Assembly (NCBI GenBank): GCA_045603885.1
Contig: JAZUMZ010000085.1
Span: forward strand, 132-64,131
DNA length: 64,000 nt
Direction of reading: 5' to 3'
Origin: Bacteroidaceae bacterium
Lineage (GTDB): Bacteria; Bacteroidota; Bacteroidia; Bacteroidales; Bacteroidaceae
Made by a program: the position numbers and the translations under genes. Below, piece by piece: positions 8,633 through 60,724 of the stretch (position 1 is the first letter of the stretch; each line of letters starts with the position of its first letter). The notes under the pieces were generated by a model. That model was not told the DNA's origin, searched no databases, and saw only the letters and a program-made list of their open reading frames with translations.

Positions 8633-10198
8633 ATGAAAAGGACATTAATATACATATTAATTAGCTCGGCAATGTTAGCGGCGTGTTCTGAGAATCACCC
8701 TCCAGTGCCGGAAAACGCACAGACGACGAATGTAAAACCGACTATATATCCCGATTATATAGATGTGACCGTACCAGCTAATATAGCACCATTAAATTTC
8801 AAAGTTCTCGGAAAATGTGATGATGCCGTCGCACGTATTACTGACGGTAGCGGCAAAAGCGAAACATACGGCAAGAAGAATAAAATTCAGATTCCATTGG
8901 ATGAATGGAAAGAAATTCTCTCCAACAGCACAGGAAAGTCCATAAAGGTTGAGCTGTTTTGCCATGAGAGCAACAAATGGCTTGCCTATCAGCCATTTTC
9001 CATTGACGTGGCCTCAGACTCCATCGACCCGTATATATCCTATCGTCTGATAAATCCCTCCTACGTGGCATATGAGGAGTTGAGAATATGCCAACGCAAC
9101 GTGGAGAATTTCGATGAAAGCGACATCTACAACAATATGATTATCTCCACGGAGAGCGACGGCCAGTGTATCAACTGCCACTCCTACCAGAACTACCACA
9201 CCGACAACATGCAGTTTCATGCCCGTCAGGCCCATGGAGGCACAATTCTGGTATATAATGGCCAGGCAAAGAAGATAAACCTGAAGACACCAGAGACCCT
9301 AAGCGCCGGCGTTTATCCATCATGGCATCCCACGATGCCTCTTATCGCATACTCGACCAACAGCACCGGACAGTCATTCCATACCAAGGACCGCGCCAAG
9401 ATTGAGGTTCAAGATGCCGCGAGCGACCTGATTCTTTACGACATAGAGAAGAACGAGGTAAGCAATATCTCTAATGACTCCACAGAATTTGAGGTATTCC
9501 CATGGTGGAGTCCCGACGGAAAAATGCTATATTACTGCTCAGCCCATTTTGAGTTTAATGACAGCATAGAGGTGGTTGATGTAAAGTCCGTGGATGTCTA
9601 TGGCACACAGACTGACGAAAAGCTTCTAAAGCATCAGGCACAGATTATCGATAGATATGATGAGATCCGCTATAACATATACCGTAAGCCATTCGACCCA
9701 AAGACCAGAACTTTCGGTGAGAGCGAACTCATTTACGACGCGGCCCGCGACAGCATGAGCGCTACCATTCCACGCATCAGTCCCGACGGCAGATACCTCC
9801 TGTTCGGTCTCGGCTCATTCGGCTGTTTCCACATCTGGCACCCAGACGCTGACCTGTGGATGACCGACCTCCAAACGTTAGAAAGCTACGAATTGAAAGA
9901 GGCCAACAGTCCTTTAGCCGAGAGCTATCACTCCTGGTCGAGCAATGGCCGTTGGATTATGTTCGCCAGCCGTCGCGACGACGGTAACTACAGCCGTCTG
10001 TACATCGCCTATTTTGACAACAACGGCAAAGCCCACAAGCCCTTTGAGCTGCCTCAGGAAGACCCTGACTTCTACAAGATGTTCCTGAAGTCATACAATG
10101 TTCCCGAGTTCATGGTTGAACCTGTGAGCCTGAGTCCACAGGAGTTTCACGACGTGGCCATGGGAGAGGCTGAGAATGCCACATTCAAAGCGAAATAA
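8633..10198 (+). CDS. Lipoprotein, TolB/PD40-like beta-propeller protein carrying a single CXXCH motif
   Basis: ATG at 8633 gives MKRTLIYILISSAMLAAC (lipobox); the GTG at 8600 in the ORF track adds a non-signal extension. PD40-like blades are present (WSPDGKMLYY, ISPDGRYLLF, WSSNGRWIMF). The motif is DGQCINCHSY. Confidence 0.65.
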   Translation: MKRTLIYILISSAMLAACSENHPPVPENAQTTNVKPTIYPDYIDVTVPANIAPLNFKVLGKCDDAVARITDGSGKSETYGKKNKIQIPLDEWKEILSNSTGKSIKVELFCHESNKWLAYQPFSIDVASDSIDPYISYRLINPSYVAYEELRICQRNVENFDESDIYNNMIISTESDGQCINCHSYQNYHTDNMQFHARQAHGGTILVYNGQAKKINLKTPETLSAGVYPSWHPTMPLIAYSTNSTGQSFHTKDRAKIEVQDAASDLILYDIEKNEVSNISNDSTEFEVFPWWSPDGKMLYYCSAHFEFNDSIEVVDVKSVDVYGTQTDEKLLKHQAQIIDRYDEIRYNIYRKPFDPKTRTFGESELIYDAARDSMSATIPRISPDGRYLLFGLGSFGCFHIWHPDADLWMTDLQTLESYELKEANSPLAESYHSWSSNGRWIMFASRRDDGNYSRLYIAYFDNNGKAHKPFELPQEDPDFYKMFLKSYNVPEFMVEPVSLSPQEFHDVAMGEAENATFKAK

Positions 10199-10218
10199 AT
10201 AAAAAGGTAAAAATAAAT

Positions 10219-12345
10219 ATGAGAAAAATATTTGTAACTTTAGCATTTTTACTGACAAGCCTTGTCATGATGAGCCAAGGCACGATAAATGACTACAAGC
10301 GTGCTTTCGGTATCAGGGGGAAATACACAGGAAAGATGACCCACGGCGATGTACGCGCTCATGTGGTGCATGGCAAACATCAGTTCTGGTACACTGTGAC
10401 CACAGCAGAGGGAACAGTTCACAAACTTGTGGATTGTGACTCCTTGAAAGTGAGTGATTTCACACCACCAGAGGAGCCCAAACGTCCCCGGGGGCCTCAA
10501 CGCCACTGGATGGAAGTGCCAGATGAGAAAGACGGAGTCGTAAAGAGTCCTGACGGGAAGTCGGAGATATTCCACAAAGACAACAATCTGTGGATACGTC
10601 CTGCCGGCAGCATAGAATCCGGCAAGCCGCTGACCTCCAACGGCGACAGCGCGTATTACTATTCCTCTTACGGCTCATACTCACCTGACGGCCGCTATTA
10701 TGCCACAGTACGTATAAAGCCAGCTCCCAAGCGTTATGTCTATTATGTGGAATCCTCCCCTTCCGACCAGCTCCAGCCCAAGCTCCACAAGCAAGAATAC
10801 GCAAAGCCCGGTGACTCCCTGAATTACCGTGTTCCAGCAGTTGTCGATGTGGCAAACGGGCACGTAACAGAGCCGTCCACAGAACTTTTTGCCCATCAAT
10901 ACTATGTTGATGCCCCCTCATGGGAGAAGGACAGCAAACACGTGACTTTTGCCTTTAATGAGCGCGGTCACCACACCTACCGTCTTCTTGAGATGGATGC
11001 AGAGAGCGGCAACATCAGATGTATCATCGAGGAAAAGAATGACAAATATGTGAATTACAACCGCTTGTTCCGTCACGACTTTGAAAATGGCAAATATATT
11101 GTGTGGACCAGTGAGCGCGACAACTACAACCACATATATCTTTACGACAAGGCTACCGGCAACCTACTGAGACAGATAACCAAAGGCGATTTCTATGTCC
11201 GCTCTGTAGATTATGTTGACGAATCCAAAGGCCAGATTTATTTCTCCGCCAACGGCCATACAGGCCTTCGAGAATCAGACAAGCGTAAGACCAAGACTTA
11301 TGCAGGCACCAATGCCACGGAGGAAGATCCTTACCTGATTCACCATTATCGTGTTGACATAGACGGTAAGCACATGATATGCCTGAATCCGGAAGAAGGG
11401 AACCACAGCGTGAGATATACCGATGACCACGAATACATGATAGACACCTACTCCACGGTGCTGAATCCCCCCGTGACTGTAATGCGTCGAACGAAAGACG
11501 GCAAAGTGCTGATGGAGCTTGAGAAAGCCGACATAGGCGCATTGGAGCAGACCGGTTGGAAACGCCCGGAGGTGTTTGTAGCCAAAGGCCGTGACGGCAA
11601 GACAGATATGTGGGGCCTGATACAGCGTCCCAGCAATTTCGACCCTGCGAAAAAATACCCTGTTATAGAATACATATATTCCGGTCCGGGCGACCAGTAT
11701 GTGCCAAAGTCGTTCACTCCCTGGCTATGGAATCTGGCCGACCTCGCAGAGTTAGGGTTTATCGTTGTTCAGCTTGACGGAATGAGCACCTCGTTCCGCA
11801 GCCGCTCGTTTGAGGAAGTGTGTTACAAAAACCTGCAAGACGCCGGCTTTCCCGACCGCAAACTCTGGATTCGATCAGCATGTGAGACATACCCTTATAT
11901 GGACATAGACCGTGTAGGAATATACGGTTGCTCAGCAGGTGGTCAGGAAGCCCTCACCGCAGTGTTGCTTCATGGCGACTTCTACAAGGCCGCATACGCA
12001 GCCTGTGGATGTCATGACAATCGAATGGACAAGATTTGGTGGAACGAGCAATGGATGAGCTATCCTATAGACGAGAGCTACGTGGCATCCTCCAATGTCG
12101 AGAACGCATCAAAGCTGAATTGTCCTCTAATGCTTGTAGTCGGTGAGTTGGACGACAACGTAGACCCCGCCTCCACGATGCAGGTTGTCAACGCACTTGA
12201 AAAGGCCGGTAAAGACTTTGACCTGGTAGTAATTCCCGGCGCTCACCACACAATGGGTGAGAAATTCGGCGAACACAAACGTTATGACTTTTTCGTAAGG
12301 CATTTGCTTGGTGTAGATCCTCCCAAATGGAATGAAATCAAATAG
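10219..12345 (+). CDS. S9 family serine peptidase (dipeptidyl-peptidase IV-like: beta-propeller + alpha/beta hydrolase)
   Basis: Signal peptide. Nucleophile elbow GIYGCSAGGQEA (GxSxGG). Acid residue in VVGELDDNVD and His in IPGAHHTM. The ~450-aa N-terminal region has DPPIV_N-like repeats (SPDGKSE, SPDGRYYA). Confidence 0.85.
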   Translation: MRKIFVTLAFLLTSLVMMSQGTINDYKRAFGIRGKYTGKMTHGDVRAHVVHGKHQFWYTVTTAEGTVHKLVDCDSLKVSDFTPPEEPKRPRGPQRHWMEVPDEKDGVVKSPDGKSEIFHKDNNLWIRPAGSIESGKPLTSNGDSAYYYSSYGSYSPDGRYYATVRIKPAPKRYVYYVESSPSDQLQPKLHKQEYAKPGDSLNYRVPAVVDVANGHVTEPSTELFAHQYYVDAPSWEKDSKHVTFAFNERGHHTYRLLEMDAESGNIRCIIEEKNDKYVNYNRLFRHDFENGKYIVWTSERDNYNHIYLYDKATGNLLRQITKGDFYVRSVDYVDESKGQIYFSANGHTGLRESDKRKTKTYAGTNATEEDPYLIHHYRVDIDGKHMICLNPEEGNHSVRYTDDHEYMIDTYSTVLNPPVTVMRRTKDGKVLMELEKADIGALEQTGWKRPEVFVAKGRDGKTDMWGLIQRPSNFDPAKKYPVIEYIYSGPGDQYVPKSFTPWLWNLADLAELGFIVVQLDGMSTSFRSRSFEEVCYKNLQDAGFPDRKLWIRSACETYPYMDIDRVGIYGCSAGGQEALTAVLLHGDFYKAAYAACGCHDNRMDKIWWNEQWMSYPIDESYVASSNVENASKLNCPLMLVVGELDDNVDPASTMQVVNALEKAGKDFDLVVIPGAHHTMGEKFGEHKRYDFFVRHLLGVDPPKWNEIK

Positions 12346-12398
12346 GATGATAATAGAACAACGTATCAAGGCTGTTTACAATACGAAAGGACACTTAG

Positions 12399-13787
12399 AT
12401 GAGTAAGACACAGACAATAGACAGAACGAAAGAATTAGGCACAAAAGACATTGGCAAGTTGCTGATGCAATATGCTTTGCCTGCAGTGGTAGCCATGACA
12501 GCCTCATCGCTCTACAACATAGTAGATCGCATATTTATCGGTCATATCGGTGACAACACCAGCGAAGGCGCATTGGCCTTGTCGGGGCTTGCCGTCACTT
12601 TCCCAATCATGAACCTGAGCGCGGCATTCGGTGCGATGGTCGGTGTTGGCGGGAGCACATACATGTCAGTAAAGCTTGGCCAGAAGGACAACTTGGCGGC
12701 AGAGCGCACATTAGGCAATGTTGTGACCCTTAACATAATAGTGGGATTAGTTCTTGCTGTTTTCGGAATATTATTCATAGACAATCTTCTTTATTTCTTC
12801 GGTGCCAGTGAATTGACAGTAGGCTATGCCCGTGAATACATGTTTGTAATTCTCCTCGGCAATGTCATCACTCACCTTTATCTCGGTTTGAACGCCACAC
12901 TTCGCTCAACAGGCCATCCCCACATAGCCATGATTGCGACAATAGGCACCGTTATTATCAACTCAATTCTTGACCCTCTGTTTATCTTCACCTTCGGTTT
13001 GGGCATCCGCGGCGCCGCCATTGCCACGATATTGGCTCAGGTGTTCGCCTTAGCGTATGTGTGGATTGTTATGAGCAACAAGAATGACCTTATCCACCTT
13101 CACAAAGGCATTTACAAGCTCAAGTCAAGAATAGTGCATAACATATTGAAGATAGGCATGTCGCCCTTCCTCATGCAGCTATGCGCATGTGTTGTCGTTA
13201 TTCTGATAAACAAAGGCCTTCAGACTCATGGAGGCGATATAGCCATAGCTGCCTACGGCATAATAAACGGCATAACGTTTCTATTTCTGATGATAGTGAT
13301 GGGTATATGCCAAGGAATGCAGCCTATTGCCGGCTACAACTACGGAGCCCAGCTATATCCGAGAGTAAACAAGGTGTTAAGATATTGTATAATATATGCT
13401 ACTATAGTCATGGTGATCTCGTTTCTGGTATGCGAGCTTATTCCACACCTTCCCATATTACTCTTCACAAGCGATCCGAAACTGACAGAACTCTCAATAG
13501 AGGGAATGCGTCTTATCCAGTTAGTATCCCCGTTGATAGGCTTTGCGATTGTGGTAGGCCATTTCTTCCAAAGCATCGGTCTAGCAAAGAAGAGCATCTT
13601 CCTGTCGTTGTGCCGCCAACTAATATTCCTCATACCGTTTCTATTGATATTTCCGGATCTCTGGGGCACGGCAGGTGTATGGCTGAGCATCGCCGTATCA
13701 GACTTTATCTCCGTGCTTTTCGCCGGTGGAATGTTGTGGCATTTTTATCATAGTGGCGGTCTGAGTACCGTCAAGTCTCTTGACTGA
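12399..13787 (+). CDS. MATE family efflux transporter
   Basis: 462 aa with ~12 hydrophobic helices. The N-terminal block LLMQYALPAVVAMTASSLYNIVDRIFIGH is typical of MATE/NorM-like proteins. Confidence 0.9.
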   Translation: MSKTQTIDRTKELGTKDIGKLLMQYALPAVVAMTASSLYNIVDRIFIGHIGDNTSEGALALSGLAVTFPIMNLSAAFGAMVGVGGSTYMSVKLGQKDNLAAERTLGNVVTLNIIVGLVLAVFGILFIDNLLYFFGASELTVGYAREYMFVILLGNVITHLYLGLNATLRSTGHPHIAMIATIGTVIINSILDPLFIFTFGLGIRGAAIATILAQVFALAYVWIVMSNKNDLIHLHKGIYKLKSRIVHNILKIGMSPFLMQLCACVVVILINKGLQTHGGDIAIAAYGIINGITFLFLMIVMGICQGMQPIAGYNYGAQLYPRVNKVLRYCIIYATIVMVISFLVCELIPHLPILLFTSDPKLTELSIEGMRLIQLVSPLIGFAIVVGHFFQSIGLAKKSIFLSLCRQLIFLIPFLLIFPDLWGTAGVWLSIAVSDFISVLFAGGMLWHFYHSGGLSTVKSLD

Positions 13788-49279: not shown

Positions 49280-49777
49280 ATGAAAAGATTAATATTGTTA
49301 TACTTGTTCAGCATTACCTATATAATTGGAATCCAAGCTCAGGACTCTCGATATGTAGGCACCTGGAAGTGGCATTATGACTCCCCCTATGAGGATGGAG
49401 AAGAAGGAATGCCTCCTCGGGATGAATATATAAAAATAAATATAGAAGATGGAAGTGTATGGATTAGTATTAAAATGGAAGGGAAAGATGGTAATGGGCA
49501 TCCTTTTGTAAGTCGAGAAGAAGCAGAAGATATAAGAGTGAATAGTGATGGTTCCATCTCTTTTAGACGATATATTTGTAAAAAAGAATATGACAACGAT
49601 AAGCAACTTTATCTGACTGTTTGGGACTCTTATACTGTCCGTTATGCTGGAGGGAGACTTATTTCAAATGAAGAAGTCAATGAAGAATCATATTCAGCAA
49701 ATGGAATTTTAGTCAAATCAGAATACCACAAAATGCCTCGGAAGAAAACATATTATAACGAAAAAGATAATTGGTAA
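49280..49777 (+). CDS. Small secreted protein, acidic-Trp C-terminus family, member 1 (lipocalin-like GxW start)
   Basis: Signal peptide ...GIQAQ|D. The mature N-terminus has YVGTWKW, the central block is EYIKINIEDGSVWISIKME, and the C-terminus is YYNEKDNW. Confidence 0.7.
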   Translation: MKRLILLYLFSITYIIGIQAQDSRYVGTWKWHYDSPYEDGEEGMPPRDEYIKINIEDGSVWISIKMEGKDGNGHPFVSREEAEDIRVNSDGSISFRRYICKKEYDNDKQLYLTVWDSYTVRYAGGRLISNEEVNEESYSANGILVKSEYHKMPRKKTYYNEKDNW

Positions 49778-49796
49778 TCAATTATAGAAAATAATA

Positions 49797-50282
49797 ATGA
49801 AGAAACTACTATTATTGCTAATGTTTGCTTTTGAATCTTGTAATCTCTTAGCACAGGATTGTAATTTGTGTGGTACTTGGATAGGAGTGTTTAGAGTATT
49901 TCTAGACGGTGACAACACAACTAAGAGGCTTTATATAGACATTAAAAAAACATATAGGGACAAATATGTTGTTAGGGTTAAAGAAGTATATACATATAAT
50001 GACCAAAGCTCTAAAACATATTATTGGCATGAATGCATGGACGTAAACGCAAATAAAAACGTCATTACGTGGAAAAGTTTCAGTCATCAAATTGATGATA
50101 ATGAGGATGGTGGCTACGAGAAATACTATTATGTATGCACGGCAAGAGTAGATAATGGAATATTGTACTTTAAACAAATGGTTGAAGGTTTTTATTATGG
50201 AAGAAATGGAGAAATAATAGGCGAATATAACCAACCGGCATATCCAACGAAAGAATTATATAAAGACGAAGATAACTGGTAA
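49797..50282 (+). CDS. Small secreted protein, acidic-Trp C-terminus family, member 2
   Basis: Signal peptide ...LLAQ|D. Blocks are CGTWIGVF, then LYIDIKK...KYVVRVKE, then the C-terminus LYKDEDNW. Confidence 0.7.
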   Translation: MKKLLLLLMFAFESCNLLAQDCNLCGTWIGVFRVFLDGDNTTKRLYIDIKKTYRDKYVVRVKEVYTYNDQSSKTYYWHECMDVNANKNVITWKSFSHQIDDNEDGGYEKYYYVCTARVDNGILYFKQMVEGFYYGRNGEIIGEYNQPAYPTKELYKDEDNW

Positions 50283-50300
50283 CAAATATTTTTTGAGTTT

Positions 50301-51110
50301 ATGAAAAGAACCTTAATAACGTCTATTTTTATTTGTTTGTCGTTCATAAATGTAATGACATTATGGTCTTTTAACTCCCATTCATTTACAGGAAAGAGAA
50401 TCAATGTTTTCAGCGAAGTTAATGACGATTGGATTCTTATTGGCGAAGTTTCTTTGTCTAACTATAATTCTGGCTACGAACCAATCACTGCAAAATTGTA
50501 TGTCAGAGAGATTGCTAAGGAACTTATCTATCGGGTAGAATATCAAGGAGCGTTTTATGCTACCAGATGGCATGATGATTCCAAAACATACCATGTAACA
50601 ATAAACGGCAAGACATATAGATGCGATGTGCCTGTCAATTCTACAGAAAATGAAACGGAGAGTGGAAACTCCGCGAAATTCGTTGGTAAGTGGAAGTTAG
50701 GACATCTGGGATGGTATATGGATATATCTTTTAACAATGGCAGATATAGTTTTAATTTAAATCCCGACTTAATAGGAGAGATAGTAGAATTTCAAGAGAC
50801 ATCAAACGGCATCGTATTTACTTATGTAGAAAAGTTTGACAAGCGCCCCGAGTTGAACAGAAAAGGTTGGCGGTATTATTATGATGAACGAGACAACAAA
50901 GCAGACCCTGGCTATCCGACCAGCGGAAGATATGAATACGACAGAGAGGTAGTGTATTATACAGCTTCTATTGCCTTATCAGACAAAGCACCAGTCCGCA
51001 AAATGATAAAGATGCATACTTACTATTACTTGGGAACAGCATTAACCTATGCTGATACAGATACGGATTTTAATATGCCTGGTTTTACTACAGAACTAAC
51101 AAAATATTGA
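50301..51110 (+). CDS. Secreted two-domain protein, unknown function (second half has an FVGKWKL lipocalin-like start; no acidic-Trp tail)
   Basis: Signal peptide present. 269 aa. Ends in ...TELTKY. Confidence 0.6.
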   Translation: MKRTLITSIFICLSFINVMTLWSFNSHSFTGKRINVFSEVNDDWILIGEVSLSNYNSGYEPITAKLYVREIAKELIYRVEYQGAFYATRWHDDSKTYHVTINGKTYRCDVPVNSTENETESGNSAKFVGKWKLGHLGWYMDISFNNGRYSFNLNPDLIGEIVEFQETSNGIVFTYVEKFDKRPELNRKGWRYYYDERDNKADPGYPTSGRYEYDREVVYYTASIALSDKAPVRKMIKMHTYYYLGTALTYADTDTDFNMPGFTTELTKY

Positions 51111-51113
51111 ACT

Positions 51114-51650
51114 ATGAAGAAAATGATTATATTAACCCTTTGTCTACTTTGCGGTTTGTCAGTAGCAACTGCACAAAGTCAAGATCCGTGGGTAGGAACA
51201 TGGACTTCTGAAAGCTACAAGGCATTAGACAGTGAATCAGAAGGACAAGAATACACTAATTATCGGTACGTTATTAGAATCTCAAAAAATGGAGATAATT
51301 ATTTCGTGAGAGCCAAAACTATCAAAGTTGCAGACCCTGAATCAGCAATCTATAATGATGCTTATGGTATTAAAAATTCACAAGCCAAGATTGACGGTAA
51401 TAGAATGCTGGTTGAATCTCGCAGGGAAAAGATTCCATTTTATGTAAATGGACGAGTCGATTCATATTCCAACACAACATCATATTTCGAATTAACGATT
51501 AACAACGGAACATTACATTGTTCTTTTTACAAATATGTAGTTGAGAGTTATGATAAGAATATGAGATATGAATACACTAACACATTTGGCTTACATGAAC
51601 AATATCCCGGCCCATGTGTTGAACGCGATTTATTCAACGATGATTGGTAA
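51114..51650 (+). CDS. Small secreted protein, acidic-Trp C-terminus family, member 3
   Basis: Signal peptide ...VATAQ|S. Blocks are WVGTWTSE, then YVIRISKNGDNYFVRAKT, then the C-terminus LFNDDW. Confidence 0.7.
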   Translation: MKKMIILTLCLLCGLSVATAQSQDPWVGTWTSESYKALDSESEGQEYTNYRYVIRISKNGDNYFVRAKTIKVADPESAIYNDAYGIKNSQAKIDGNRMLVESRREKIPFYVNGRVDSYSNTTSYFELTINNGTLHCSFYKYVVESYDKNMRYEYTNTFGLHEQYPGPCVERDLFNDDW

Positions 51651-51693
51651 ACTTTTTCAGTACATAACAAGGAAAATAAAATAGGATTCAATT

Positions 51694-52230
51694 ATGAGAA
51701 AATATCTATTAACAATTCTGCTTTCATTGCTATGTTTGATTAATGCAATGGCACAAGAACCCGCAATTTGTGGAGATTGGATAGGATTGTATAAAAGCGA
51801 AGCCATTTCAGATGATGTGGATAGTGATGGGAGTAAGTATCTAGTCCAAAAAGATTATAGGCGTTACATTAGAATTAAACTAATAGGTGACAATTACACT
51901 GTTAGAATGAAGACTAGGATTGCGGATGAGAGTTCTCCTTTCACATATTCTCCGGAATGCCAAATTATCGAGGCAAACGACAGAATTATCAAATGGAAAA
52001 TGAATTTGGGACCTTCATACGATTGGAACCCATCAGACAGGCATAAAGGAATACCCATTGGCCATGCTGATTATTATGAATATTGTACTGTTGTGCTTTC
52101 TAATGGAACATTAAAATACTCTGAATATATGTTGACTATCTATTATGATAGACAAGGCCGAGAAATTGACAAACAAAAATGGTTTGAAAAAGATGGCCAG
52201 ACTTTATATAAAGAAGACTCTGATTGGTAA
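51694..52230 (+). CDS. Small secreted protein, acidic-Trp C-terminus family, member 4
   Basis: Signal peptide ...NAMAQ|E. Blocks are CGDWIGLY, then RYIRIKLIGDNYTVRMKTRIADESSPF, then the C-terminus LYKEDSDW. Confidence 0.75.
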   Translation: MRKYLLTILLSLLCLINAMAQEPAICGDWIGLYKSEAISDDVDSDGSKYLVQKDYRRYIRIKLIGDNYTVRMKTRIADESSPFTYSPECQIIEANDRIIKWKMNLGPSYDWNPSDRHKGIPIGHADYYEYCTVVLSNGTLKYSEYMLTIYYDRQGREIDKQKWFEKDGQTLYKEDSDW

Positions 52231-52250
52231 TAAGAAAAAAATCAAGCAAT

Positions 52251-52862
52251 ATGAAACAACTAATTATAATTTCTGTATTATTATTGTCATCACTTTCATC
52301 ATACGCACAATACGATGATGAAATATATACCGTAAATATCACGGGAGCTCCGAGCATTACACTTGACTATATGCGCAATCCTGGAGATATGGATACGCAT
52401 TCTTTCAATCAAGATAACAATCTGGGCACCTATTATCCTGACGACGATGGCGTAATTCGCATAGAATTGTCAAAAGGATACTATCAGTATTTAGTCCATT
52501 GGAATTCACACGGTCCACAAAACGGGAGTTTCTATATAAAAGATAGAAATGTATATTTTGAAATTCGTATGCTTCCTCCCTATTGCAATATAGATACGAA
52601 GAAAACTATTGAGAAAGCATACAGATGTTTGTCTAATAAGAAAAAGAAAGAAGCACGTGAGTTATTCTATATTGCGGCAGAGGCAGGAAATGCCGATGCG
52701 ATGTTTGACTATGCACGAATATGCTGGAATGGTATAGGTGGCGGGAAAAACAAAAACCATGCTTACCATTATATAAATGAAGCATTAAAACATGGGCACC
52801 CATTAGCGGCTACCTATATAGAACATTTTAAAGATAAATACGTTTGGAAATGGTACTTATAA
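52251..52862 (+). CDS. Secreted protein with N-terminal beta-rich domain and C-terminal Sel1-like repeats
   Basis: The ATG at 52251 gives MKQLIIISVLLLSSLSSYAQ|Y; the ORF-track start at 52224 is a TTG. C-terminal SLR block AAEAGNADAMFDYARICWNGIGGGKNKNHAYHYINEALKHGHPLAA. Paralog of 58643-59257. Confidence 0.7.
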   Translation: MKQLIIISVLLLSSLSSYAQYDDEIYTVNITGAPSITLDYMRNPGDMDTHSFNQDNNLGTYYPDDDGVIRIELSKGYYQYLVHWNSHGPQNGSFYIKDRNVYFEIRMLPPYCNIDTKKTIEKAYRCLSNKKKKEARELFYIAAEAGNADAMFDYARICWNGIGGGKNKNHAYHYINEALKHGHPLAATYIEHFKDKYVWKWYL

Positions 52863-52966
52863 AGGCCTGTTTTATGATAACAGCATTAACCGCCATTTCT
52901 GATAGATTATCTATGGGGAAGCCGAAAACCATATAGAGTAGGCAATAAACTAAATAAGTGTTACTT

Positions 52967-53161
52967 ATGGAGAACTTTAAATTATCTAATTTGCGCGAAC
53001 TCTCCACAGAGGAGCAGTTAAACTTGAATGGTGGCTTCGGCTCGAATGCTTCCTGTTCATGCTCTGGATGCAGTTGCTCATGCAGTGAAAAGAGTCCTAA
53101 AGCAACTGTAGATGAGGTCACAGATGGTGCCAAAGAGGCTGTAAAGGATGCAAAGCGTTAA
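52967..53161 (+). CDS. RiPP precursor peptide A (23-aa double-glycine leader + 41-aa core with 5 Cys)
   Basis: The sequence is MENFKLSNLRELSTEEQLNLNGG|FGSNASCSCSGCSCSCSEKSPKATVDEVTDGAKEAVKDAKR. The leader is nearly identical to that of the next ORF. The gene sits directly upstream of the C39-ABC exporter and rSAM genes. The ATG is at 52967; the ORF-track start at 52958 is a GTG. Confidence 0.75.
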   Translation: MENFKLSNLRELSTEEQLNLNGGFGSNASCSCSGCSCSCSEKSPKATVDEVTDGAKEAVKDAKR

Positions 53162-53180
53162 TTCTTAAAAACAGTAACTC

Positions 53181-53411
53181 ATGGATACTTTTAGATTGAC
53201 CAATCTACGCGAGCTCTCAACAGAGGAGCAGCTGCGTATTAATGGAGGCATGGATTCCACTGGTTGTAAAGCAGACTGTGGTGCTTGTACTTGTCCCTGT
53301 AAATGCAATAGCAAGAATCCTTCGAAGTCGGTAGGAGAAAGCAATGCAGATTCTGGCGACAATTCAGCCCTCGCCCAACGTAAAGTTACCGCTGCAATGC
53401 AGTCAATGTAA
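53181..53411 (+). CDS. RiPP precursor peptide B (23-aa double-glycine leader + 53-aa core with 6 Cys)
   Basis: The sequence is MDTFRLTNLRELSTEEQLRINGG|MDSTGCKADCGACTCPCKCNSKNPSKSVGESNADSGDNSALAQRKVTAAMQSM. Confidence 0.75.
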   Translation: MDTFRLTNLRELSTEEQLRINGGMDSTGCKADCGACTCPCKCNSKNPSKSVGESNADSGDNSALAQRKVTAAMQSM

Positions 53412-53414
53412 AGA

Positions 53415-55583
53415 ATGCCTCGATTCCGTATTGTTTACCAGCATGAGCAAGAAGACTGTGGAGCAGCTTGCCTTGCAATGATTTTACGCTTTTATGGCTT
53501 CCAAGTAACATTGGAGGCTATAAAGGCTTTTTGTGGTAACATGAAAAACGGAATAACGATGCTGGGATTAAACCGTTCTGCAAAACGAATCGGCTTTGCA
53601 ACGCAGGCAGTTCGGTTGAATGAAATGGAATTATTCAACTTAGAAGAAAGTCTATGCCCATTCATTGCATACTGGCGTCAAAATCATTTTGTAGTGGTTT
53701 ACAAAATTTCTGCCCAGCATGTTTATGTTGCAGACCCCGCAATTGGTAGAATCCGATACAACAAAAGAGAGTTTCTGGATGGCTTTGCATTATCAGAAAC
53801 CTCCGATGGCTTTGTTTTGCTATTAAAGCCAGAAAACATAAAAAAGGAGACAATACAAGAAGAACAACGAATTGGTATTAACCTACAAGATTACATTAAA
53901 CCTCGGTGGAAGGAGTTAACGTGGACTGTAGTCTCTTTATTAATTCTTTCTGCTATTGGCCTTATCTTTCCTTTTCTTACTCAGGCAGTAGTAGATAAAG
54001 GTATAGCAGAAAAAAGCCCAAGTATCCTGTTGGTTATTTTATGTGCCACGCTTTCATTAACCATAGGACGCGCTCTTTTTAGCTTTCTGCAATCGCGAAT
54101 GACCTTAGTCGCAGGGACACTAATTGATATAGAATTAGCCAATAATCTTTTGGTGAGACTGTCGGCTTTGCCTATGAAATTCTTTGCAGCCCGTAAGGTT
54201 GGTGATATGATACAGCGTGTTTCGGACATTTCTCGAATAGGCGACTATTTCTCCTCACGTATAGCAGAAAGCATTCTTTCAACATTGATGTTCTGCATAT
54301 ATGCCGGAATCTTATTATATTTGTATCCGTTGCTATTTGTTGTATTTATGATAGGAGCAACCTTATATATATCGTACATCCTCCTATTCCTACGCCGTAG
54401 GAAGATTCTTGACTACGAATTCTTTGGTGCTGCTTCAAAATCCCAAGAAGAATTGATACAATACTTACGGGGCATGACTGAATTGAAATTAGCATGTGCA
54501 GAAGATGAGCGCCTGGGTATATGGAAGAAATATAGGTATGAACTTTTTAGCGTAAGCCGTCGAAGCCTTATGCTATCGCAAAAACAAGAATTAGGGAGTG
54601 TCTTTATTTTCCAAGTTGTAGATGCAATCACAATATACCTGATGGCAATAGCTGTGATTGACGGAAATACCACTTTGGGGTCGATGATGGCCGTTCAATA
54701 TATTATTGGGAGCATGGAGAATCCTTTGCACATTGTTACAAGATTTATCCGAGATACGCAAAGTATGCAAATTGCTCTTACGCGTATCAATTATATAGCA
54801 TCGTCAGAACCAGAGAAGAGCGGAAATACTCGGTTCTCCTCACATGACATCCCCCCTTCGATTAAAATAGACAACATAACATTTTCTTATGACATTGATG
54901 ATAATAAACCAGCATTACTAAATGTAAATGTAATTATTCCATCTGGTAAAACGACTGCCTTAGTAGGGATGAGTGGAAGCGGAAAAACAACACTTCTAAA
55001 ACTATTGCTTGGTTTCTATTCTCCCGATAATGGCTCTATTTATGTCAATAATGAAAGACTGTCTGATTTTGATTTGTCAGATTGGCGGAAGTGTATTGGA
55101 GCCGTTATGCAAGATGGATACATTTTTTCGGATACTATTACAAAGAATGTTGCTTTGGGTGATACTAATCCTTCAATTGAAAGGATTAAAGAAGCACTTC
55201 GAATATCGTGCGCAGACTTTGTCTTCGCATTACCCGTCGGATTAAACACCATCATTGGAGCTGAAGGAATGTCACTCAGTATGGGGCAACGACAACGTAT
55301 TTTACTTGCAAGAGCTATTTATAAACGTCCATCTCTTTTTCTTTTAGATGAAGCTACAAATGCTTTGGATGCCATTAACGAACGGCATATATATGAAAAC
55401 TTAAATTCTGAATTGAAGGGGAAAACTGTTGTAATAGCAGCGCATCGGTTGAGTACCATTAGCAATGCTGACCAAATACTTGTATTTGATGAGGGACGTA
55501 TAGTTGAGAGCGGAATACATACGGAACTAATAGAAAAGAATGGCAAATATGCTGAGTTGGTGCGTAATCAGCGTTTCAATTAA
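53415..55583 (+). CDS. Peptidase C39 domain-containing ABC transporter (bacteriocin/RiPP leader-cleaving exporter)
   Basis: N-terminal C39 motif QHEQEDCGAACLAMIL. Six-TM ABC membrane domain. Walker A GMSGSGKTT, signature LSMGQRQR, Walker B LFLLDEAT. Confidence 0.9.
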   Translation: MPRFRIVYQHEQEDCGAACLAMILRFYGFQVTLEAIKAFCGNMKNGITMLGLNRSAKRIGFATQAVRLNEMELFNLEESLCPFIAYWRQNHFVVVYKISAQHVYVADPAIGRIRYNKREFLDGFALSETSDGFVLLLKPENIKKETIQEEQRIGINLQDYIKPRWKELTWTVVSLLILSAIGLIFPFLTQAVVDKGIAEKSPSILLVILCATLSLTIGRALFSFLQSRMTLVAGTLIDIELANNLLVRLSALPMKFFAARKVGDMIQRVSDISRIGDYFSSRIAESILSTLMFCIYAGILLYLYPLLFVVFMIGATLYISYILLFLRRRKILDYEFFGAASKSQEELIQYLRGMTELKLACAEDERLGIWKKYRYELFSVSRRSLMLSQKQELGSVFIFQVVDAITIYLMAIAVIDGNTTLGSMMAVQYIIGSMENPLHIVTRFIRDTQSMQIALTRINYIASSEPEKSGNTRFSSHDIPPSIKIDNITFSYDIDDNKPALLNVNVIIPSGKTTALVGMSGSGKTTLLKLLLGFYSPDNGSIYVNNERLSDFDLSDWRKCIGAVMQDGYIFSDTITKNVALGDTNPSIERIKEALRISCADFVFALPVGLNTIIGAEGMSLSMGQRQRILLARAIYKRPSLFLLDEATNALDAINERHIYENLNSELKGKTVVIAAHRLSTISNADQILVFDEGRIVESGIHTELIEKNGKYAELVRNQRFN

Positions 55584-55604: not shown

Positions 55605-57218
55605 ATGACTACGAAACATGAAGCCCTGAATTATTTGAAGGAAAACTATCCTTTGGTAAAGATTGTCGATTTTGACACTCTTAGTAAGTTATTTTATGAT
55701 GCGAGAGCACATATGCTATTCGTCGTCGGTGAAGAAGACCTACCTATCATTGCGGATTACCTACGTACTCACGACAAGGCTTTCCTAAACAAAGAATATC
55801 CACATTTCAGTGGCATTGATGGTATTATAGAACGTATAGATGACTTGCAAAACAAAGGCGTACTACTTCCTGGCCCAGTTGAACAACTAATCAGCACTGA
55901 ACCAGACGAAGTATATAAACGAATTGAGTATAATATTGAAAACATATTGATGCGTAAATTCGTACTGGAAACCACACAGCAATGTAATTTCAGATGTCGC
56001 TATTGCCATAACACGCTCGAATCTGTATATCGCCATCATACTAAAAGCCAGATGATGTTTCCTGTTGCAAAAGCTGCGATAGACTTTTACAAGGATATGT
56101 ATTTAAAATTCTACAGACGTCTACCTGATGAGAAAAAGGAATTGTTGCTTAAACATTTCAAGCCTTTTGTTGGGTTTTATGGGGGAGAACCGTCGCTTAA
56201 CTGGAATCTGGTAAAAGAAGCATCAGATTATTTCTTGAATTGTGGTTGGGAGAATGATGGAATTAACCAGAAAGATTTAGAAATATCTATAAATACAAAT
56301 CTATATATCCTAACAGATGACATGATGTCCTTCATATTGTCATATCAACCTCTCTTGTTTGTTTCTCTTGACGGGCCAAAAGAAGATAATGATCGAAATA
56401 GAATAACCGCTGACGGCAAGGGAACATTTGACAAGGTTTATTCTAACTTGATGCGAATAAAAGATGCAGATGAAAAATACTTTAAGGAAAAGATGTTGAT
56501 ATTATGTGTGGAAGCTGAGGGTAATGATAGTAAAGCAGTACATAACTTATTAGATAATCTTGGATGTCCTATAAGCTATTTAAAGGAACAACCATTTGGA
56601 TGTCTTGAACGTGAGCCAGAGAAACAGGTCCAATATTATGATGAGAACGAAGAACGTATGATTAATTCGGTCATCGATAATTATAAACATCGCGCCTCTG
56701 AGAATGATCCCAACGCAATAGAAGAATTTTCTTCATTATATTTTCTGGAAGGAGTTGAAAGTGACACGCCCTACTATCGTCGTCCTATATCAATTAGTCT
56801 CACATGTCCGCTTTGTGTTGACAATATTATGATTGGAACTAAGGGGGAAATGCATCTATGCCATAAGACGGATGGCTCCTTGCCACTCGGAAATGTTTGT
56901 GAAGGTGGGTATGACATGAAAAAAATGTTCGAAGCCTATCAAAGCTATGGAGAGGCAACAAATTGTATAGAATGTCGTAGTTGTTGGGCGATGAATGTCT
57001 GTAGCTACTGCGCAGCCTTGCGTCTTGATGGTGGAAAATGGGTAAATCCCAAACATGAAGAATGTGATTTACAAAGAAGACGTGTCGAATATCTTCTTAA
57101 ACTCTTTGTCGCGATGTATAAGTTAGACCCAACCATCTTGCCAAAACTAATGGAAAGGAAAAGGGATTTGAATATCTATAAGTCTATTGTTGATTTTAAT
57201 TCTTTTGTCAATTTATAA
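55605..57218 (+). CDS. Radical SAM/SPASM-domain peptide maturase
   Basis: CNFRCRYC (CX3CX2C) at aa 127-134. C-terminal auxiliary-cluster Cys motifs CPLC...C...C...CIECRSCWAMNVCSYC. A ~115-aa N-terminal extension precedes the rSAM core. Confidence 0.85.
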   Translation: MTTKHEALNYLKENYPLVKIVDFDTLSKLFYDARAHMLFVVGEEDLPIIADYLRTHDKAFLNKEYPHFSGIDGIIERIDDLQNKGVLLPGPVEQLISTEPDEVYKRIEYNIENILMRKFVLETTQQCNFRCRYCHNTLESVYRHHTKSQMMFPVAKAAIDFYKDMYLKFYRRLPDEKKELLLKHFKPFVGFYGGEPSLNWNLVKEASDYFLNCGWENDGINQKDLEISINTNLYILTDDMMSFILSYQPLLFVSLDGPKEDNDRNRITADGKGTFDKVYSNLMRIKDADEKYFKEKMLILCVEAEGNDSKAVHNLLDNLGCPISYLKEQPFGCLEREPEKQVQYYDENEERMINSVIDNYKHRASENDPNAIEEFSSLYFLEGVESDTPYYRRPISISLTCPLCVDNIMIGTKGEMHLCHKTDGSLPLGNVCEGGYDMKKMFEAYQSYGEATNCIECRSCWAMNVCSYCAALRLDGGKWVNPKHEECDLQRRRVEYLLKLFVAMYKLDPTILPKLMERKRDLNIYKSIVDFNSFVNL

Positions 57219-57522: not shown

Positions 57523-58053
57523 ATGAGAAAAGTATTATTAGTAAGTTTATTGTCATTAATGAGTTTTATAACGACAATGGCACAACAATCCGCGATATGT
57601 GGGGATTGGATAGGTATTGCTCATGAAGCTGCATTTAAAGAGCATCCAGAAACTGGAAATATGATGAGAGTTGATGAAAAGTTGTATATTCGTATCAAAC
57701 AGATTGATGGGAAGTTTCAAGTGAGGATGAAAACACGAATTGCTGACGAAAGTAGGCCTTTTAATTATCTGCCAGAATGTAAAGTGATTTTTGTGAATGA
57801 CAATGTTGTAAAGTGGTCTCAAGACTGGGGGGGCAATAATGAAGGTAATTTAGGAAAAGAACAAGGTATTGTTGTGGGCAGGGACTCACAAATTGCATAT
57901 TATACAGCTGTATTAACTGATGGCGTGTTACGTCTTTCAGAAAAATATATTATCACCTATTATGACAGGCAAGGGCGAGTTATTACATCTAAAGATTTCC
58001 CTTCTAGTTATTCTAAGGGTGTCACTTTGTACAAAGAAGAGTCTGATTGGTAA
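57523..58053 (+). CDS. Small secreted protein, acidic-Trp C-terminus family, member 5
   Basis: Signal peptide ...TTMAQ|Q. Blocks are CGDWIGIA, then LYIRIKQIDGKFQVRMKTRIADESRPF, then the C-terminus LYKEESDW. Confidence 0.75.
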   Translation: MRKVLLVSLLSLMSFITTMAQQSAICGDWIGIAHEAAFKEHPETGNMMRVDEKLYIRIKQIDGKFQVRMKTRIADESRPFNYLPECKVIFVNDNVVKWSQDWGGNNEGNLGKEQGIVVGRDSQIAYYTAVLTDGVLRLSEKYIITYYDRQGRVITSKDFPSSYSKGVTLYKEESDW

Positions 58054-58068
58054 ACATTTAACTATTCA

Positions 58069-58595
58069 ATGATGAGAAAAGTATTATTAGCAAGTATGTT
58101 GTCCCTGCTTTGTTTGACAACAGCAATGGCTCAAAGACTCGCAATTTGCGGGGACTGGGTAGGAGTTTTTGAGAGTTTTAATATTTTCGACTCCAATGGA
58201 GACAGACATAGAGTTGATGCTAATTATAAACGGTATATTCGGATAAAGTTTATAGATGGCCAATACACCGTTAGGATGAAAACAAGAATAGCAGATAACA
58301 CAGAACCTTTCAATTATTGGTCAGAATGTCAAATAATAGAAGCTGACAACAGACAGATTAAATTGAAAATGGATTTAGGCCCTGAATAGGATTGGTCTTC
58401 AGACTCAAGACATAAAGGAATACAAATTGGTCATGCCGATTATAATATGTTTAACACAGAACGCTATTAAATGGAACATTAAAGTATTCTGAGTATATGT
58501 TGACCACATATTTTGACAGATTTGGTAGAGAAATAGACAGAGAGTACACATATGACAAAGAGCATTTGTTATACAAAGATGAAGATGATTGGTAA
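58069..58595 (+). pseudogene. Acidic-Trp C-terminus family, member 6, inactivated (in-frame TAG at 58387 plus a frameshift near 58450)
   Basis: The first 106 codons align with member 4 (CGDWVGVF...RYIRIKFIDGQYTVRMKTRIADNTEPF). After the TAG the homology continues (DWSSDSRHKGIQIGHADY). It then shifts frame (NGTLKYSEYMLTTYFDRFGREID...LLYKDEDDW*). Confidence 0.7.
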
Positions 58596-58642
58596 CGTTT
58601 GAATAACAAAGTTAAGAATAACCTATACAAAAACAAATTAAC

Positions 58643-59257
58643 ATGAAAACATTAATATCAATTATTGTGCTATTGTTATCAACAATCACAGCTCAAGGAC
58701 AATACGCTAATAACACATATACAGTAAATATCCCTGGAGTTTCGAGTATTATATTATTTTATCCAAGTGACTATGATGCTTCCAGATCATCTTCAGAAGC
58801 AGGTCCCTTTGACGGTGCAAATATTATGGGTACATATTATTCCGATATAGATGGCGTAATACGCATAGAACTCACAAAAGGGTATTATGAATATATAACA
58901 GAAAAAAACGGAATGAATGGAAGTTTTTTAATATCCGACCGCAACGTATATTTTAATATTTTAGAACTTCCCCCACTTTTTAGTATTGACACAGGGAAAG
59001 TACTTTCTCAAGCATATCAATATCTGTCTAACAAGCAGAAAAAGAGAGCACGAGAATTATTTCAAATAGCAGCTGATGCCGGTAATGTGAAAGCTATGTT
59101 TACCTATGCACGAATGTGTTACAACGGAATGGGAGGTGGAAAAAACAAGAATAATGCTTATCACTGTATAGTAGAAGCACAGAAACACGGTGATTCTATA
59201 GCTTCTTATTTCCTTGAAAACTTTAAGGACAAGAGGATTTGGAAATGGCATCTATAA
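58643..59257 (+). CDS. Secreted protein with N-terminal beta-rich domain and C-terminal Sel1-like repeats (paralog of 52251-52862)
   Basis: Signal peptide ...ITAQG|Q. Shared blocks YTVNIPG, GTYYSDIDGVIRIELTKGYYEY, AADAGNVKAMFTYARMCYNGMGGGKNKNNAYH, and the shared ending FKDK.(I/V)WKW(H/Y)L. Confidence 0.7.
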   Translation: MKTLISIIVLLLSTITAQGQYANNTYTVNIPGVSSIILFYPSDYDASRSSSEAGPFDGANIMGTYYSDIDGVIRIELTKGYYEYITEKNGMNGSFLISDRNVYFNILELPPLFSIDTGKVLSQAYQYLSNKQKKRARELFQIAADAGNVKAMFTYARMCYNGMGGGKNKNNAYHCIVEAQKHGDSIASYFLENFKDKRIWKWHL

Positions 59258-59474: not shown

Positions 59475-60724
59475 TTAGACATTATCCCACCTGTAGCAAT
59501 AGGGTTCAAGTATTTTGTGATTAATCTGTAACTCAGAAGCTGTTTTGCGCCAATCATTTATGGCGTCACGAACCTCGTCAATTATCTCAGTTGCGACCTC
59601 CCTCTCAAGCATATAGTATTCGCTTGCAGCGAGTAAGACATTTATGTCCGACTCTTCAGTGTATGCATCGATGAGCAAACACTGGTTAGATTTAGCCCCC
59701 GGATTGATGTCATAGGCAGGAGAGAGTGTCCAGCCTTTCGGGGTAAGCAGGAAGCCGTGATTGCGAAAGTGGTCATCAGTGTTGCCGAACATGATGTTGA
59801 ATGCCACTCTTCTATATAGTTCTCTGAGATTTTGGTGTACACCAGTGCAACCATGAAGTATGAAATCCACTATATCCAGATAACCATTGCCAGTGTTGCA
59901 TCCAGCTCCATCGTCAAGCCCAAGCAACGACATAGCTGAAGCAAAATGGATTCGATGTCCATCCTTTGTCCTGTCAAAACGCTCAGAGAGCAAAAGGTCG
60001 CGGTCTTTTGCAATCTTAACGGTTCGTGTCTTTGCCACCTTAATCCCGGCTTTGGCCGCAAGTTGATGAGAGAAATGTTCAATGAGCTCTGTATTCTCAA
60101 GGTCCTTTTTTGACGGAAATTTAGCCACATACAGTTTGCCATCGGTATCAACAATATTAGCCTTGGGACGCGCACCATCGAGCGAGGTTCCCGGGTCAAT
60201 CAGCTGATCAAGCCACCGTTGTTGAGGCAATTCGTTTCGTTCCTCCGCCAACTCGATCTCGTGACAGGCCTCACACAATCACGCAGACTCTCAATTGGAG
60301 GGACATGGTGTTTCGTACTTGCGTTGATGTAGCTATCGCTGTTTTCCTCTTTGTAACGTATGCCGCCCATACGAGTGAAGTCCTCAATACCGATAAGGTA
60401 GTCAAAGTCAGTGAGCATACGTTTCGGCCTCCTTTCTGCTTGTGCAGTCAGCCGCTCTCTGCGGTCAAGCAACAAACCTCCCCAACGGTCAGGGAAAGAA
60501 TCCTTGATGAAGCCGAAAACATTATCACTGCCGCGTGGATGCTGCAACGAGGGGACATTCATAAGATCACCGCTTAGAAGAATGCCGCCATACTGTTTCA
60601 GCCAGTCATTCGAAAACTCAAAGAAAAAATGGTCTTTGCCACGAACGTGTTCGTAGCCTAATATTCCTATTTCCATCGGGGAAGAGAGGAAATCAAAATC
60701 CGCACAAACTATTATTCTTTTCAT
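59475..60724 (-). pseudogene. hipA: HipA-family kinase toxin gene, frameshifted
   Basis: The N-terminal HipA domain ORF (60200-60724) and the C-terminal kinase ORF (59475-60278: GTSLDGARPKA...NTDDHFRNHGF) overlap in different frames. The frame changes near 60255-60285. Confidence 0.7.

Follow-up and report, generated by a model that had tools for sequence, protein, structure and literature searches.

The DNA analyzed here, which we call the window, is a stretch of 64,000 nucleotides (nt) from a Bacteroidaceae bacterium (GenBank assembly GCA_045603885.1, contig JAZUMZ010000085.1, positions 132 to 64,131). Within it lies a co-oriented four-gene operon that encodes two short cysteine-rich peptides (precursors A and B), a peptidase-containing ABC transporter (PCAT) as exporter, and a radical S-adenosylmethionine (rSAM)/SPASM enzyme, with intergenic gaps of 19, 3 and 21 nt. 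The two open reading frames (ORFs) A and B are probably the two substrates of one pathway for peptides that ribosomes synthesize and that are modified after translation (RiPPs).

Precursor A (52967-53161, plus strand) is 64 residues long followed by a stop, with an ATG start at 52967 and a stop codon ending at 53161. It consists of a leader that ends in GG (52967-53035), the spacer FGSNAS (53036-53053), the Cys run CSCSGCSCSC (53054-53083) and a Cys-free tail (53084-53158), and reads MENFKLSNLRELSTEEQLNLNGG/FGSNAS-CSCSGCSCSC-SEKSPKATVDEVTDGAKEAVKDAKR, where the slash follows the double glycine. A GTG at 52958 would lengthen this frame by three codons; we take 52967 as the start because all homologues begin MENFKL or MEKFKL. 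Precursor B (53181-53411, plus strand; 76 residues and a stop) has the same plan, with a leader ending in GG (53181-53249), the spacer MDSTG (53250-53264), the Cys run CKADCGACTCPCKC (53265-53306) and a Cys-free tail (53307-53408), and reads MDTFRLTNLRELSTEEQLRINGG/MDSTG-CKADCGACTCPCKC-NSKNPSKSVGESNADSGDNSALAQRKVTAAMQSM. Both leaders are 23 residues long, end in NGG at residue 23 and are identical to one another at 17 of 23 positions. The run of A holds five cysteines at core positions 7-16, and that of B holds six at positions 6-19. The tails, of 25 residues in A and 34 in B, are hydrophilic (grand average of hydropathy, GRAVY, about -0.55), and each core carries six lysines and arginines together with six (A) or five (B) acidic residues. 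Without modification, the cores have predicted masses of 4144.5 Da (A) and 5361.0 Da (B). An earlier note on this DNA had described these two peptides from the letters alone. Both ORFs were reproduced exactly, and its proposal of RiPP precursors that carry double-glycine leaders and share one multi-precursor locus is supported here.

The PCAT gene (53415-55583, plus strand) encodes an N-terminal C39 peptidase (about residues 1-150), then a transmembrane domain and an ATPase. Its Pfam matches are PF03412 (Peptidase_C39; 119.6 bits against a cut-off of 22), PF00664 (ABC_membrane) and PF00005 (ABC_tran), and its top NCBIfam scores are to ABC families of bacteriocin export. The C39 motifs can be read in the translation as ..QEDCGAAC.. 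and ..NHFVVV.., which contain the catalytic Cys and His. From this domain content, the PCAT is predicted to cut after the leader GG and to export the peptide. Within about 10 kb on either side of the operon, Pfam and NCBIfam scans detected no further modifying enzyme.

The last gene of the operon (55605-57218, plus strand) encodes a 537-residue rSAM/SPASM peptide maturase with an N-terminal domain that is like a RiPP recognition element (RRE). In an alignment of 32 family members, the cysteines of the SAM cluster (C127-x3-C131-x2-C134) are invariant, as are seven C-terminal cysteines in a SPASM pattern (positions 401, 419, 457, 460, 466, 469 and 487). A 7-Cys SPASM domain has been reported for CteB, QhpD and Tte1186 (PMC10352776). 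The AlphaFold model of the enzyme (pLDDT 90.5) places a domain of three strands and three helices (beta3-alpha3, pLDDT >90) ahead of the barrel, and this modeled domain appears to have the shape of an RRE. The best match in the PDB is the thioether-forming enzyme CteB (5WGG/5WHY), with E 7e-33 in the profile comparison and E 1e-16 in the fold comparison, where about 505-520 columns were aligned; it is followed by anSME, TigE and ChlB.

Curated families were approached by the enzyme and not reached. Its top NCBIfam match was CcpM (TIGR04068) with 155.2 bits against a cut-off of 500, ahead of RumMC (NF035951; 136.8 against 720), the QhpD family (113.2 against 453), the PapB family (101.3 against 340), TIGR04148 (100.8 against 300) and the SCIFF maturase TIGR03974 (91.6 against 425). 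Scores were lower still for GggB (41.8 against 650) and for the maturases of CXXX-repeat and Cys-every-fifth peptides (TIGR04115, 45.6 against 350; NF038107, 47.2 against 600). Four homologues from other phyla also fell below every curated cut-off, with 157-227 bits for CcpM against 500. Throughout the NCBIfam and Pfam scans, which covered both precursors, five precursors from other clades, the window rSAM and these four other rSAMs, no cut-off was passed except those of the generic Radical_SAM and SPASM-domain models. Among the top matches, the characterized enzymes (RumMC, QhpD and PapB) form thioethers, and the very top one, CcpM, serves as maturase in a system whose peptide is Cys-rich. 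By these comparisons, the window enzyme appears to sit in the thioether-forming neighborhood of SPASM proteins and in no named family.

The same design recurs far beyond the window. A protein search with the rSAM returned about 89 clusters (90% identity) down to 33% identity, after which scores fell sharply from 339 to 221 bits. Scanning genomes with the family alignment yielded 37 loci (numbered with the prefix L), whose neighboring ORFs were read by six-frame scans. Their hosts span about ten phyla and include Bacteroidales and Muribaculaceae (rumen and gut metagenome-assembled genomes, MAGs), Negativicutes/Acidaminococcales, Synergistota, Bacillota, Deltaproteobacteria, Nitrospirota, Chlorobiaceae, Ignavibacteria and Acholeplasmataceae. 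Beside the rSAM, and on its strand, 33 of the 37 loci have one or two ORFs with a leader ending in GG (sometimes AG), 0-8 further residues, a run of 3-10 cysteines and a hydrophilic tail. In the remaining four the contig breaks off too early: L031, L032 and L035 are without upstream sequence, and L026 stops just past the rSAM; its nearest relative, L027 (50% identity), has its precursor downstream. Examples are ..SIKGG/KDCSCSCQTDNEKAATTLNTFAS from Nitrospirota (3 Cys), ..GG/KSCSCSCSCSCAQSNTSSATATSEKDSTTLNTYVGH from Negativicutes and ..GG/AGFTDDCKCSCSCDCDCSCDCPKEEKED... from Ignavibacteria (8 Cys), and the maximum of 10 Cys occurs in a precursor from a Bacteroidales MAG.

Over the 40 precursors that we collected, the leader ends in GG or AG in all 40 and the tail is free of cysteine in 37. 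Neighboring cysteines are spaced by 2 in 142 of 168 gaps, and by 3, 4 or 5 in 12, 11 and 3 gaps, respectively. The residue between the cysteines of the 142 C-x-C units is S in 79, D in 17, T in 12, N in 12 and K in 8, the rest being other residues. B-type orthologues in L001-L004 and L040-L043 share C-x3-C-x2-C-x-C-x-C-x-C and ..[ND]PS[KDQ]S[VI]G.., and the L040-type B precursor was found on 179 contigs. When neighboring ORFs were clustered all against all, just two genes proved to be conserved, the rSAM (38 loci) and the ABC transporter (35 of these 38). Their order is precursor-PCAT-rSAM in the Bacteroidales nearest the window and precursor-rSAM-PCAT in nearly all others. Outgroup rSAMs (27-30% identity) likewise pair with GG-leader peptides in which an N-terminal Cys cluster precedes a Cys-free tail, a sactipeptide-like layout exemplified by ..GG/QHDGDSGKDCSSSCKCEGCMPEEASFNLAGETFAHKFMD and ..GG/YVKKDCISCAWCDCQEATVTGFQLGMMINVSKGNIPYE. 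The earlier note had proposed conservation of the Cys positions in homologous loci as a check on its description, and this is borne out: the Cys run is the signature of the family and the invariant element of its design.

Selection on the two precursors was gauged by comparing the window with L038, whose rSAM is 96% identical; A was compared with L038 3368-3562. Synonymous and non-synonymous changes numbered 4 and 0 in leader A (pN/pS 0.00), 3 and 1 in leader B (0.10), and 5 and 1 in the B core (0.05), as compared with 82.5 and 34.5 in the PCAT (0.12) and 43.8 and 27.2 in the rSAM (0.15). The A core stands apart, with 9.3 synonymous and 20.7 non-synonymous changes (pN/pS 0.62). Thirteen of its 41 residues are changed while all five cysteines stay in place (CSCSGCSCSC SEKSPKATVDEV in the window, CSCGKCSCKC TKESPDATVDLV in L038), whereas the B core differs by a single residue. 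Among near-identical variants in the protein collection, a cysteine is never altered. Both leaders and the B core are therefore under strong purifying selection and the A core diversifies between fixed cysteines, so that two substrates of one enzyme experience very different selection. The view that such a locus keeps near-identical leaders while its cores diversify is supported for the leaders and for one core, that of A. Taken together, we consider it very probable that A and B are precursors modified by the rSAM enzyme and exported by the PCAT, with the Cys run as the site of modification.

The tail behind the run is also under constraint. In both window cores the last Cys begins the motif C-x-x-K-[SN]-P-x-x-x-V, which the earlier note had singled out as a shared K-x-P element. 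It is indeed present in both cores, but it is not a family motif. When 20 Bacteroidota cores were anchored on their last Cys, K at +3 was confined to the lineage of the window, P at +5 occurred in 12 of the 20, and [ST]-[VI/T] at +8/+9 occurred in most, which leaves a loose P-x-x-[ST]-[VI] as the sole motif common to Bacteroidota tails. Even among near-identical variants the K-x-P stretch varies (P to T, K to N). A-type tails end in a conserved ..DGAKxAVKxAKK-like segment and B-type tails in ..RK(Q/E)xxEM(Q/S)K(M/W), while conserved endings outside the Bacteroidota include ..TTLNT(F/Y).., ..NMLSTYA(G/S) and ..ASTFAGGSQPW. Tails are thus constrained within clades, and K-x-P is a local feature.

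Tail length follows the number of cysteines, at 16 residues for 3 Cys, 19-25 for 4, 23-34 for 5, 27-34 for 6, 45 for 8 and 46 for 10 (Spearman 0.875, slope 5.0 residues per Cys, in a correlation that ignores the shared ancestry of the sequences). The same trend recurs in separate contrasts, namely between A and B in one locus, among the 3-, 4- and 5-Cys members of the TTLNTF group, in the Ignavibacteria and in L027. Because tail length rises with Cys number, the tail appears coupled to the run, as would be expected if the tail supplies partners for the cysteines. A role as a follower peptide is possible, although clade-level constraint and scaling with Cys number fit a tail that is part of the product better than a follower.

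A pathway can be proposed from these features. The 23-residue double-glycine leader would probably be bound by the RRE-like N-terminal domain of the rSAM/SPASM enzyme, which would then act on the compact Cys run. By analogy with CteB, QhpD, PapB and RumMC, each Cys thiol would most likely form a thioether bond with a carbon in a different residue. We consider thioether formation the better bet for the modification, because the nearest enzymes are CteB, QhpD, PapB and RumMC, the SPASM domain has the 7-Cys pattern, the outgroup precursors share the layout, and StsA offers a precedent. The acceptors would most plausibly be sought in the tail, which lacks cysteine, so that the cross-links would form a hairpin or a ladder resembling StsA, a placement that we advance only tentatively and would sooner doubt than assert. 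The PCAT would finally remove the leader after GG and carry the peptide across the inner membrane, as its domains suggest. The product would thus most likely be a peptide with several thioethers, akin to sacti- or ranthipeptides and freed by cleavage at GG as it is exported, a reading that we favor with some reserve.

Several observations weigh against this proposal. The thioether assignment leans on relatives that score far below their curated cut-offs (the highest scores being 155 of 500 bits for the enzyme of the window and 227 of 500 for any member of the family). Six "catalytic-site proximity" positions have been used as a reference profile for thioether-forming rSAM enzymes (PMC10288494). 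Mapped through the CteB alignment, the window enzyme has H135, Y192, N230, S254, H420 and K421 at these positions and CteB has F, F, T, S, H and Q, so that the match is 2 of 6 with CteB and 1 of 6 with StsB, a weak comparison that involves two reference profiles only. Roughly five tail residues per Cys exceed the two or so that a simple hairpin needs, and shared ancestry is left out of the length correlation. No acceptor motif is common to tails across the family, which are without the GxGxG of StsA and far more hydrophilic than classical sactipeptides. An outer-membrane export component is absent from the window. Finally, a secreted thioredoxin in six loci hints at some cysteines being left as thiols or disulfides, and the pairing of a metal ATPase with ArsR, seen in one clade, is a hint of metal handling.

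Comparison with known systems helps to place the pathway. The StsA core, CxCxCx4GxGxG, carries three Cys-Gly sactionines in a hairpin (C2-G15, C4-G13 and C6-G11; PMC10288494). Like the peptides described here, StsA/StsB and BlaA/BlaB, hairpin sactipeptide systems of Streptomyces, combine a C-x-C-x-C run and a subsequent Cys-free segment with an rSAM enzyme and an RRE, and in StsA/StsB the donors lie in the Cys run, the acceptors downstream, with one thioether per Cys (PMC10288494). However, StsB is MftC-like, whereas the window enzyme is CteB-like and has one of six catalytic-proximity residues in common with StsB. StsA has a short x4 loop and GxGxG, and no GxGxG occurs in the tails of A, B or most homologues. 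Here the tails are 16-46 residues long and hydrophilic, the cysteines number 3-10, the RRE-like domain is fused to the enzyme, the leader ends in GG and export is by a PCAT. The earlier note had found the layout unlike those of SCIFF, sactipeptide and CXXX-repeat peptides. This holds for SCIFF and CXXX-repeat peptides, but the layout is not foreign to sactipeptides, because in hairpin sactipeptides, too, a Cys cluster at the N-terminus precedes a region of acceptors that is free of cysteine, and StsA is an experimental precedent for C-x-C-x-C donors. The maturase likewise has the sactipeptide architecture (rSAM, SPASM and an RRE-like domain) but does not reach a recognized sactisynthase family, and the peptides are compatible with the hairpin plan in layout and in the scaling of tail length with Cys, but no acceptor pattern is conserved across clades.

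The ranthipeptide/SCIFF maturase CteB (PDB 5WGG/5WHY) shares the fused N-terminal RRE, the 7-Cys SPASM domain and a hydrophilic, Cys-rich core in its substrate. In SCIFF peptides, however, the cysteines are spread through the core, whereas here they are packed into a C-x-C run ahead of a long Cys-free tail, and neither A nor B matched the SCIFF precursor model at E<=1. CcpM with its Cys-rich peptide (Clo7bot, TIGR04068) was the top curated family for every clade member tested and acts on Cys-rich substrates, but scores of 155-227 bits against 500 mark a different family; experimental chemistry for CcpM was not found in the literature. The GG-leader rSAM systems of Bacteroidetes (TIGR04148/TIGR04149) resemble the present one in a leader of the form ..L..LS.EE...I.GG, in PCAT export and in a single rSAM as sole maturase, and Bacteroidales clusters that combine a GG leader, a PCAT and an rSAM have been noted generically in a survey (PMC10352776). 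They differ in core design, in the rSAM (100.8 against 300 bits) and in the precursors, since those of the window miss TIGR04149 and the best clade member scores 23.2 against 25 bits. CXXX-repeat and Cys-every-fifth systems place a Cys at every fourth or fifth residue, unlike the prevailing spacing of 2 here. Metallothioneins share the dense C-x-C arrangement with small hydrophilic residues between cysteines, but the peptides described here match no such family, have a cleavable GG leader and predicted export, and are genetically tied to an rSAM maturase.

The account closest to the one proposed keeps the thioethers and moves the acceptors: cross-links would form locally inside the Cys run, from Cys to the alpha or beta carbon of a nearby residue, and the tail would be an un-cross-linked, soluble segment, functional or a follower, possibly trimmed later. 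The residues between the cysteines are mostly S, D, T, N and K. They resemble known ranthionine acceptors, a role that D, N and T play in PapB, NxxcB and CteB. Small non-hairpin rings are made by GggB- and PapB-type enzymes (PMC10288494), at the six sites profiled the window enzyme resembles CteB more than it does StsB, a hairpin sactisynthase, and tail motifs differ between clades. Yet the intervening residues are unconserved even between loci related at 96% (S to K or G), and therefore no specific side-chain acceptor seems required. Scaling of tail length with Cys number, clade-level tail motifs and purifying selection in B would also be unexpected for a passive appendage. We therefore regard purely local rings as unlikely, though they are the strongest of the competitors. 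More doubtful is a secreted thiol-rich peptide, metallothionein-like or redox-active, in which most cysteines are kept as metal-binding thiolates or as disulfides and rSAM modification is limited or different; the earlier note had thought a metal-binding product conceivable. Metallothioneins typically contain C-x-C runs (CSC, CKC, CTC and the like). Four loci have, next to the cluster, genes for a heavy-metal ATPase of P1B type (CPC motif) and for a regulator of the ArsR/SmtB family (L016 10042-11901; L017 9752-12363; L021 4744-7244; L030 1-2246 and 10228-12843), a weak hint of a metal connection for these peptides. All four belong to one Acidaminococcales/Acholeplasmataceae clade, however, which probably reflects a single event, and the window has no such genes. 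Directly upstream of the precursors, six loci encode a secreted thioredoxin with a signal peptide, WC-x-x-C and a PF00085 match (L001 2855-3271; L005 2335-2826; L006 4109-4519; L011 5023-5460; L036 4863-5393; L037 5007-5561), which suggests thiol/disulfide handling of the exported peptide in some lineages; it too is clade-limited and absent from the window. No metallothionein family was matched in the Pfam and NCBIfam scans, the sole universally linked enzyme comes from a clade whose characterized members consume Cys thiols, and we know of no metallothionein that requires an rSAM, an RRE-bound leader and a PCAT.

Two further accounts are contradicted by gene content and by comparison. Alternating Ser and Cys could feed dehydration or cyclodehydration in precursors of the lanthipeptide, thiopeptide or thiazole/oxazole-modified microcin (TOMM) type; A has a weak, sub-cut-off match to the thiopeptide precursor model TIGR03892 (19.2 against 25 bits), and nosiheptide-type cores contain CSCSC strings. 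However, neither the operon nor the roughly 10 kb to each side of it has a YcaO, LanB/C/M or dehydratase gene, related loci show no conserved gene of these kinds, and the inter-Cys Ser is freely swapped for D, N, K, T, Y or P, so that gene content effectively refutes this reading and leaves it a very small probability. That A and B are chance open frames might be entertained since they are short and of low complexity and since six-frame scans show other C-x-C-x-C strings in the window. The comparative data refute this, and we give it almost no weight: selection on the precursors is strongly purifying, the design is kept across phyla beside the same enzyme, other contigs carry precursor annotations made by independent gene callers, and several metagenomes contain exact copies. 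The proposed pathway of rSAM-formed thioethers, PCAT cleavage and export remains the reading that we prefer.

Genes for small secreted proteins that are paralogues of one another, at least eight in all, lie on both sides of the operon, together with two for Sel1-repeat proteins. Upstream (49280-52862, plus strand) are five secreted proteins of about 160-270 residues that end in ..D-x-W, with a Sel1-repeat protein at 52224-52862. The downstream block (57523-59257, plus strand) comprises a paralogue at 57523-58053, a truncated copy at 58069-58389 and the second Sel1-repeat protein at 58643-59257. The truncated copy has 106 residues, stops after about 60% of the alignment and, judged by this, is probably decayed. 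Hallmarks of the paralogues are a signal peptide ending in ..AQ, CGDWIG or VGTW near the mature N-terminus and the C-terminus Y-K-[DE]-[DE]-x-[DN]-W; the Sel1-repeat proteins end in KWYL and KWHL. Similar proteins surround the cluster in L002-L006. Pfam and NCBIfam scans gave no family for the flanking proteins, save a weak Sel1 match, and although the AlphaFold model of one paralogue is a confident all-beta fold (pLDDT 85), a fold search returned no significant PDB match. These proteins may be accessory, immunity or binding proteins.

Further upstream are housekeeping genes (glutamate dehydrogenase, a phosphoenolpyruvate-utilizing enzyme and a Na+/H+ antiporter), and downstream are a split HipA and an SNF2 helicase. 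The HipA kinase (59475-60724, minus strand) has its Couple_hipA and HipA_C parts in two overlapping ORFs, and is either frameshifted or a pseudogene. About 75 nt inside the PCAT gene, at 53488-53527, an imperfect stem of 17 pairs is followed by a T-run. It may attenuate read-through from the precursor genes, although such sites occur regionally within chance expectation. A promoter and terminator scan gave counts at chance level with a consensus that does not suit Bacteroidota.

Six loci of several phyla outside the Bacteroidota combine the C-x-C/rSAM/PCAT set with an adjacent graspetide-type set, whose ATP-grasp ligase has the PDB matches AMdnB, MdnC and CdnC (L008 7410-10458; L013 9939-13121; L014 2170-5521; L015 9982-13150; L020 ~9900-13353; L023 9956-13024). 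The latter set also holds a second ABC transporter without a C39 domain. Graspetide-like precursors of about 60-110 residues, ending in ..TSSTQFDGEKDE or ..SDTQFDGESKDPD, could be read in five of the six loci (not L020). The two clusters seem to travel together. We considered this ligase as a second, tail-modifying enzyme and rejected it, as it has its own graspetide-like precursor and has no counterpart in the window.

A literature search on CxCxC/CSCSC peptides, Bacteroid ranthipeptides and rSAM combined with metallothionein found no description of this family among open-access papers, where mention in a survey is possible, and public sources hold no informative protein names for its members. 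By its sequences, the system would represent an rSAM-RiPP family that extends across phyla, has no name and is defined by a C-x-C run and a proportionate Cys-free tail. It would operate as sacti- and ranthipeptide pathways do, using a leader of the double-glycine type and a PCAT, while failing the sequence membership tests of the named families. The family is widespread in rumen, gut and anaerobic environmental bacteria, and the curated models tested miss both its precursor and its maturase. In one survey, ranthipeptides were detected only through the SCIFF model TIGR03973 (PMC13289728); such a rule would miss these precursors, because they have no TIGR03973 match at E<=1.

More speculatively, and at long odds, the C-x-C run might be the core of a new class of exported product. 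In one version it would be a "zipper", with alternating cysteines on one strand, up to ten in number, each stapled by a single rSAM enzyme to a tail that grows by about five residues per Cys. In the other it would be an rSAM-tailored, secreted, metallothionein-like array of thiolates that handles metals or redox stress in anaerobic communities, for which the periplasmic thioredoxins and the metal-ATPase/ArsR neighbors of some loci are hints. If thiols do survive in the product, the family would comprise secreted peptides of a new kind, active with metals or in redox reactions. The natural series of 3 to 10 cysteines offers a probe of how one rSAM/SPASM enzyme processes many adjacent cysteines and of whether C-x-C donors dictate a particular ring topology. 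For the Bacteroidales, an order whose peptide natural products are barely characterized, the family would add a RiPP class.

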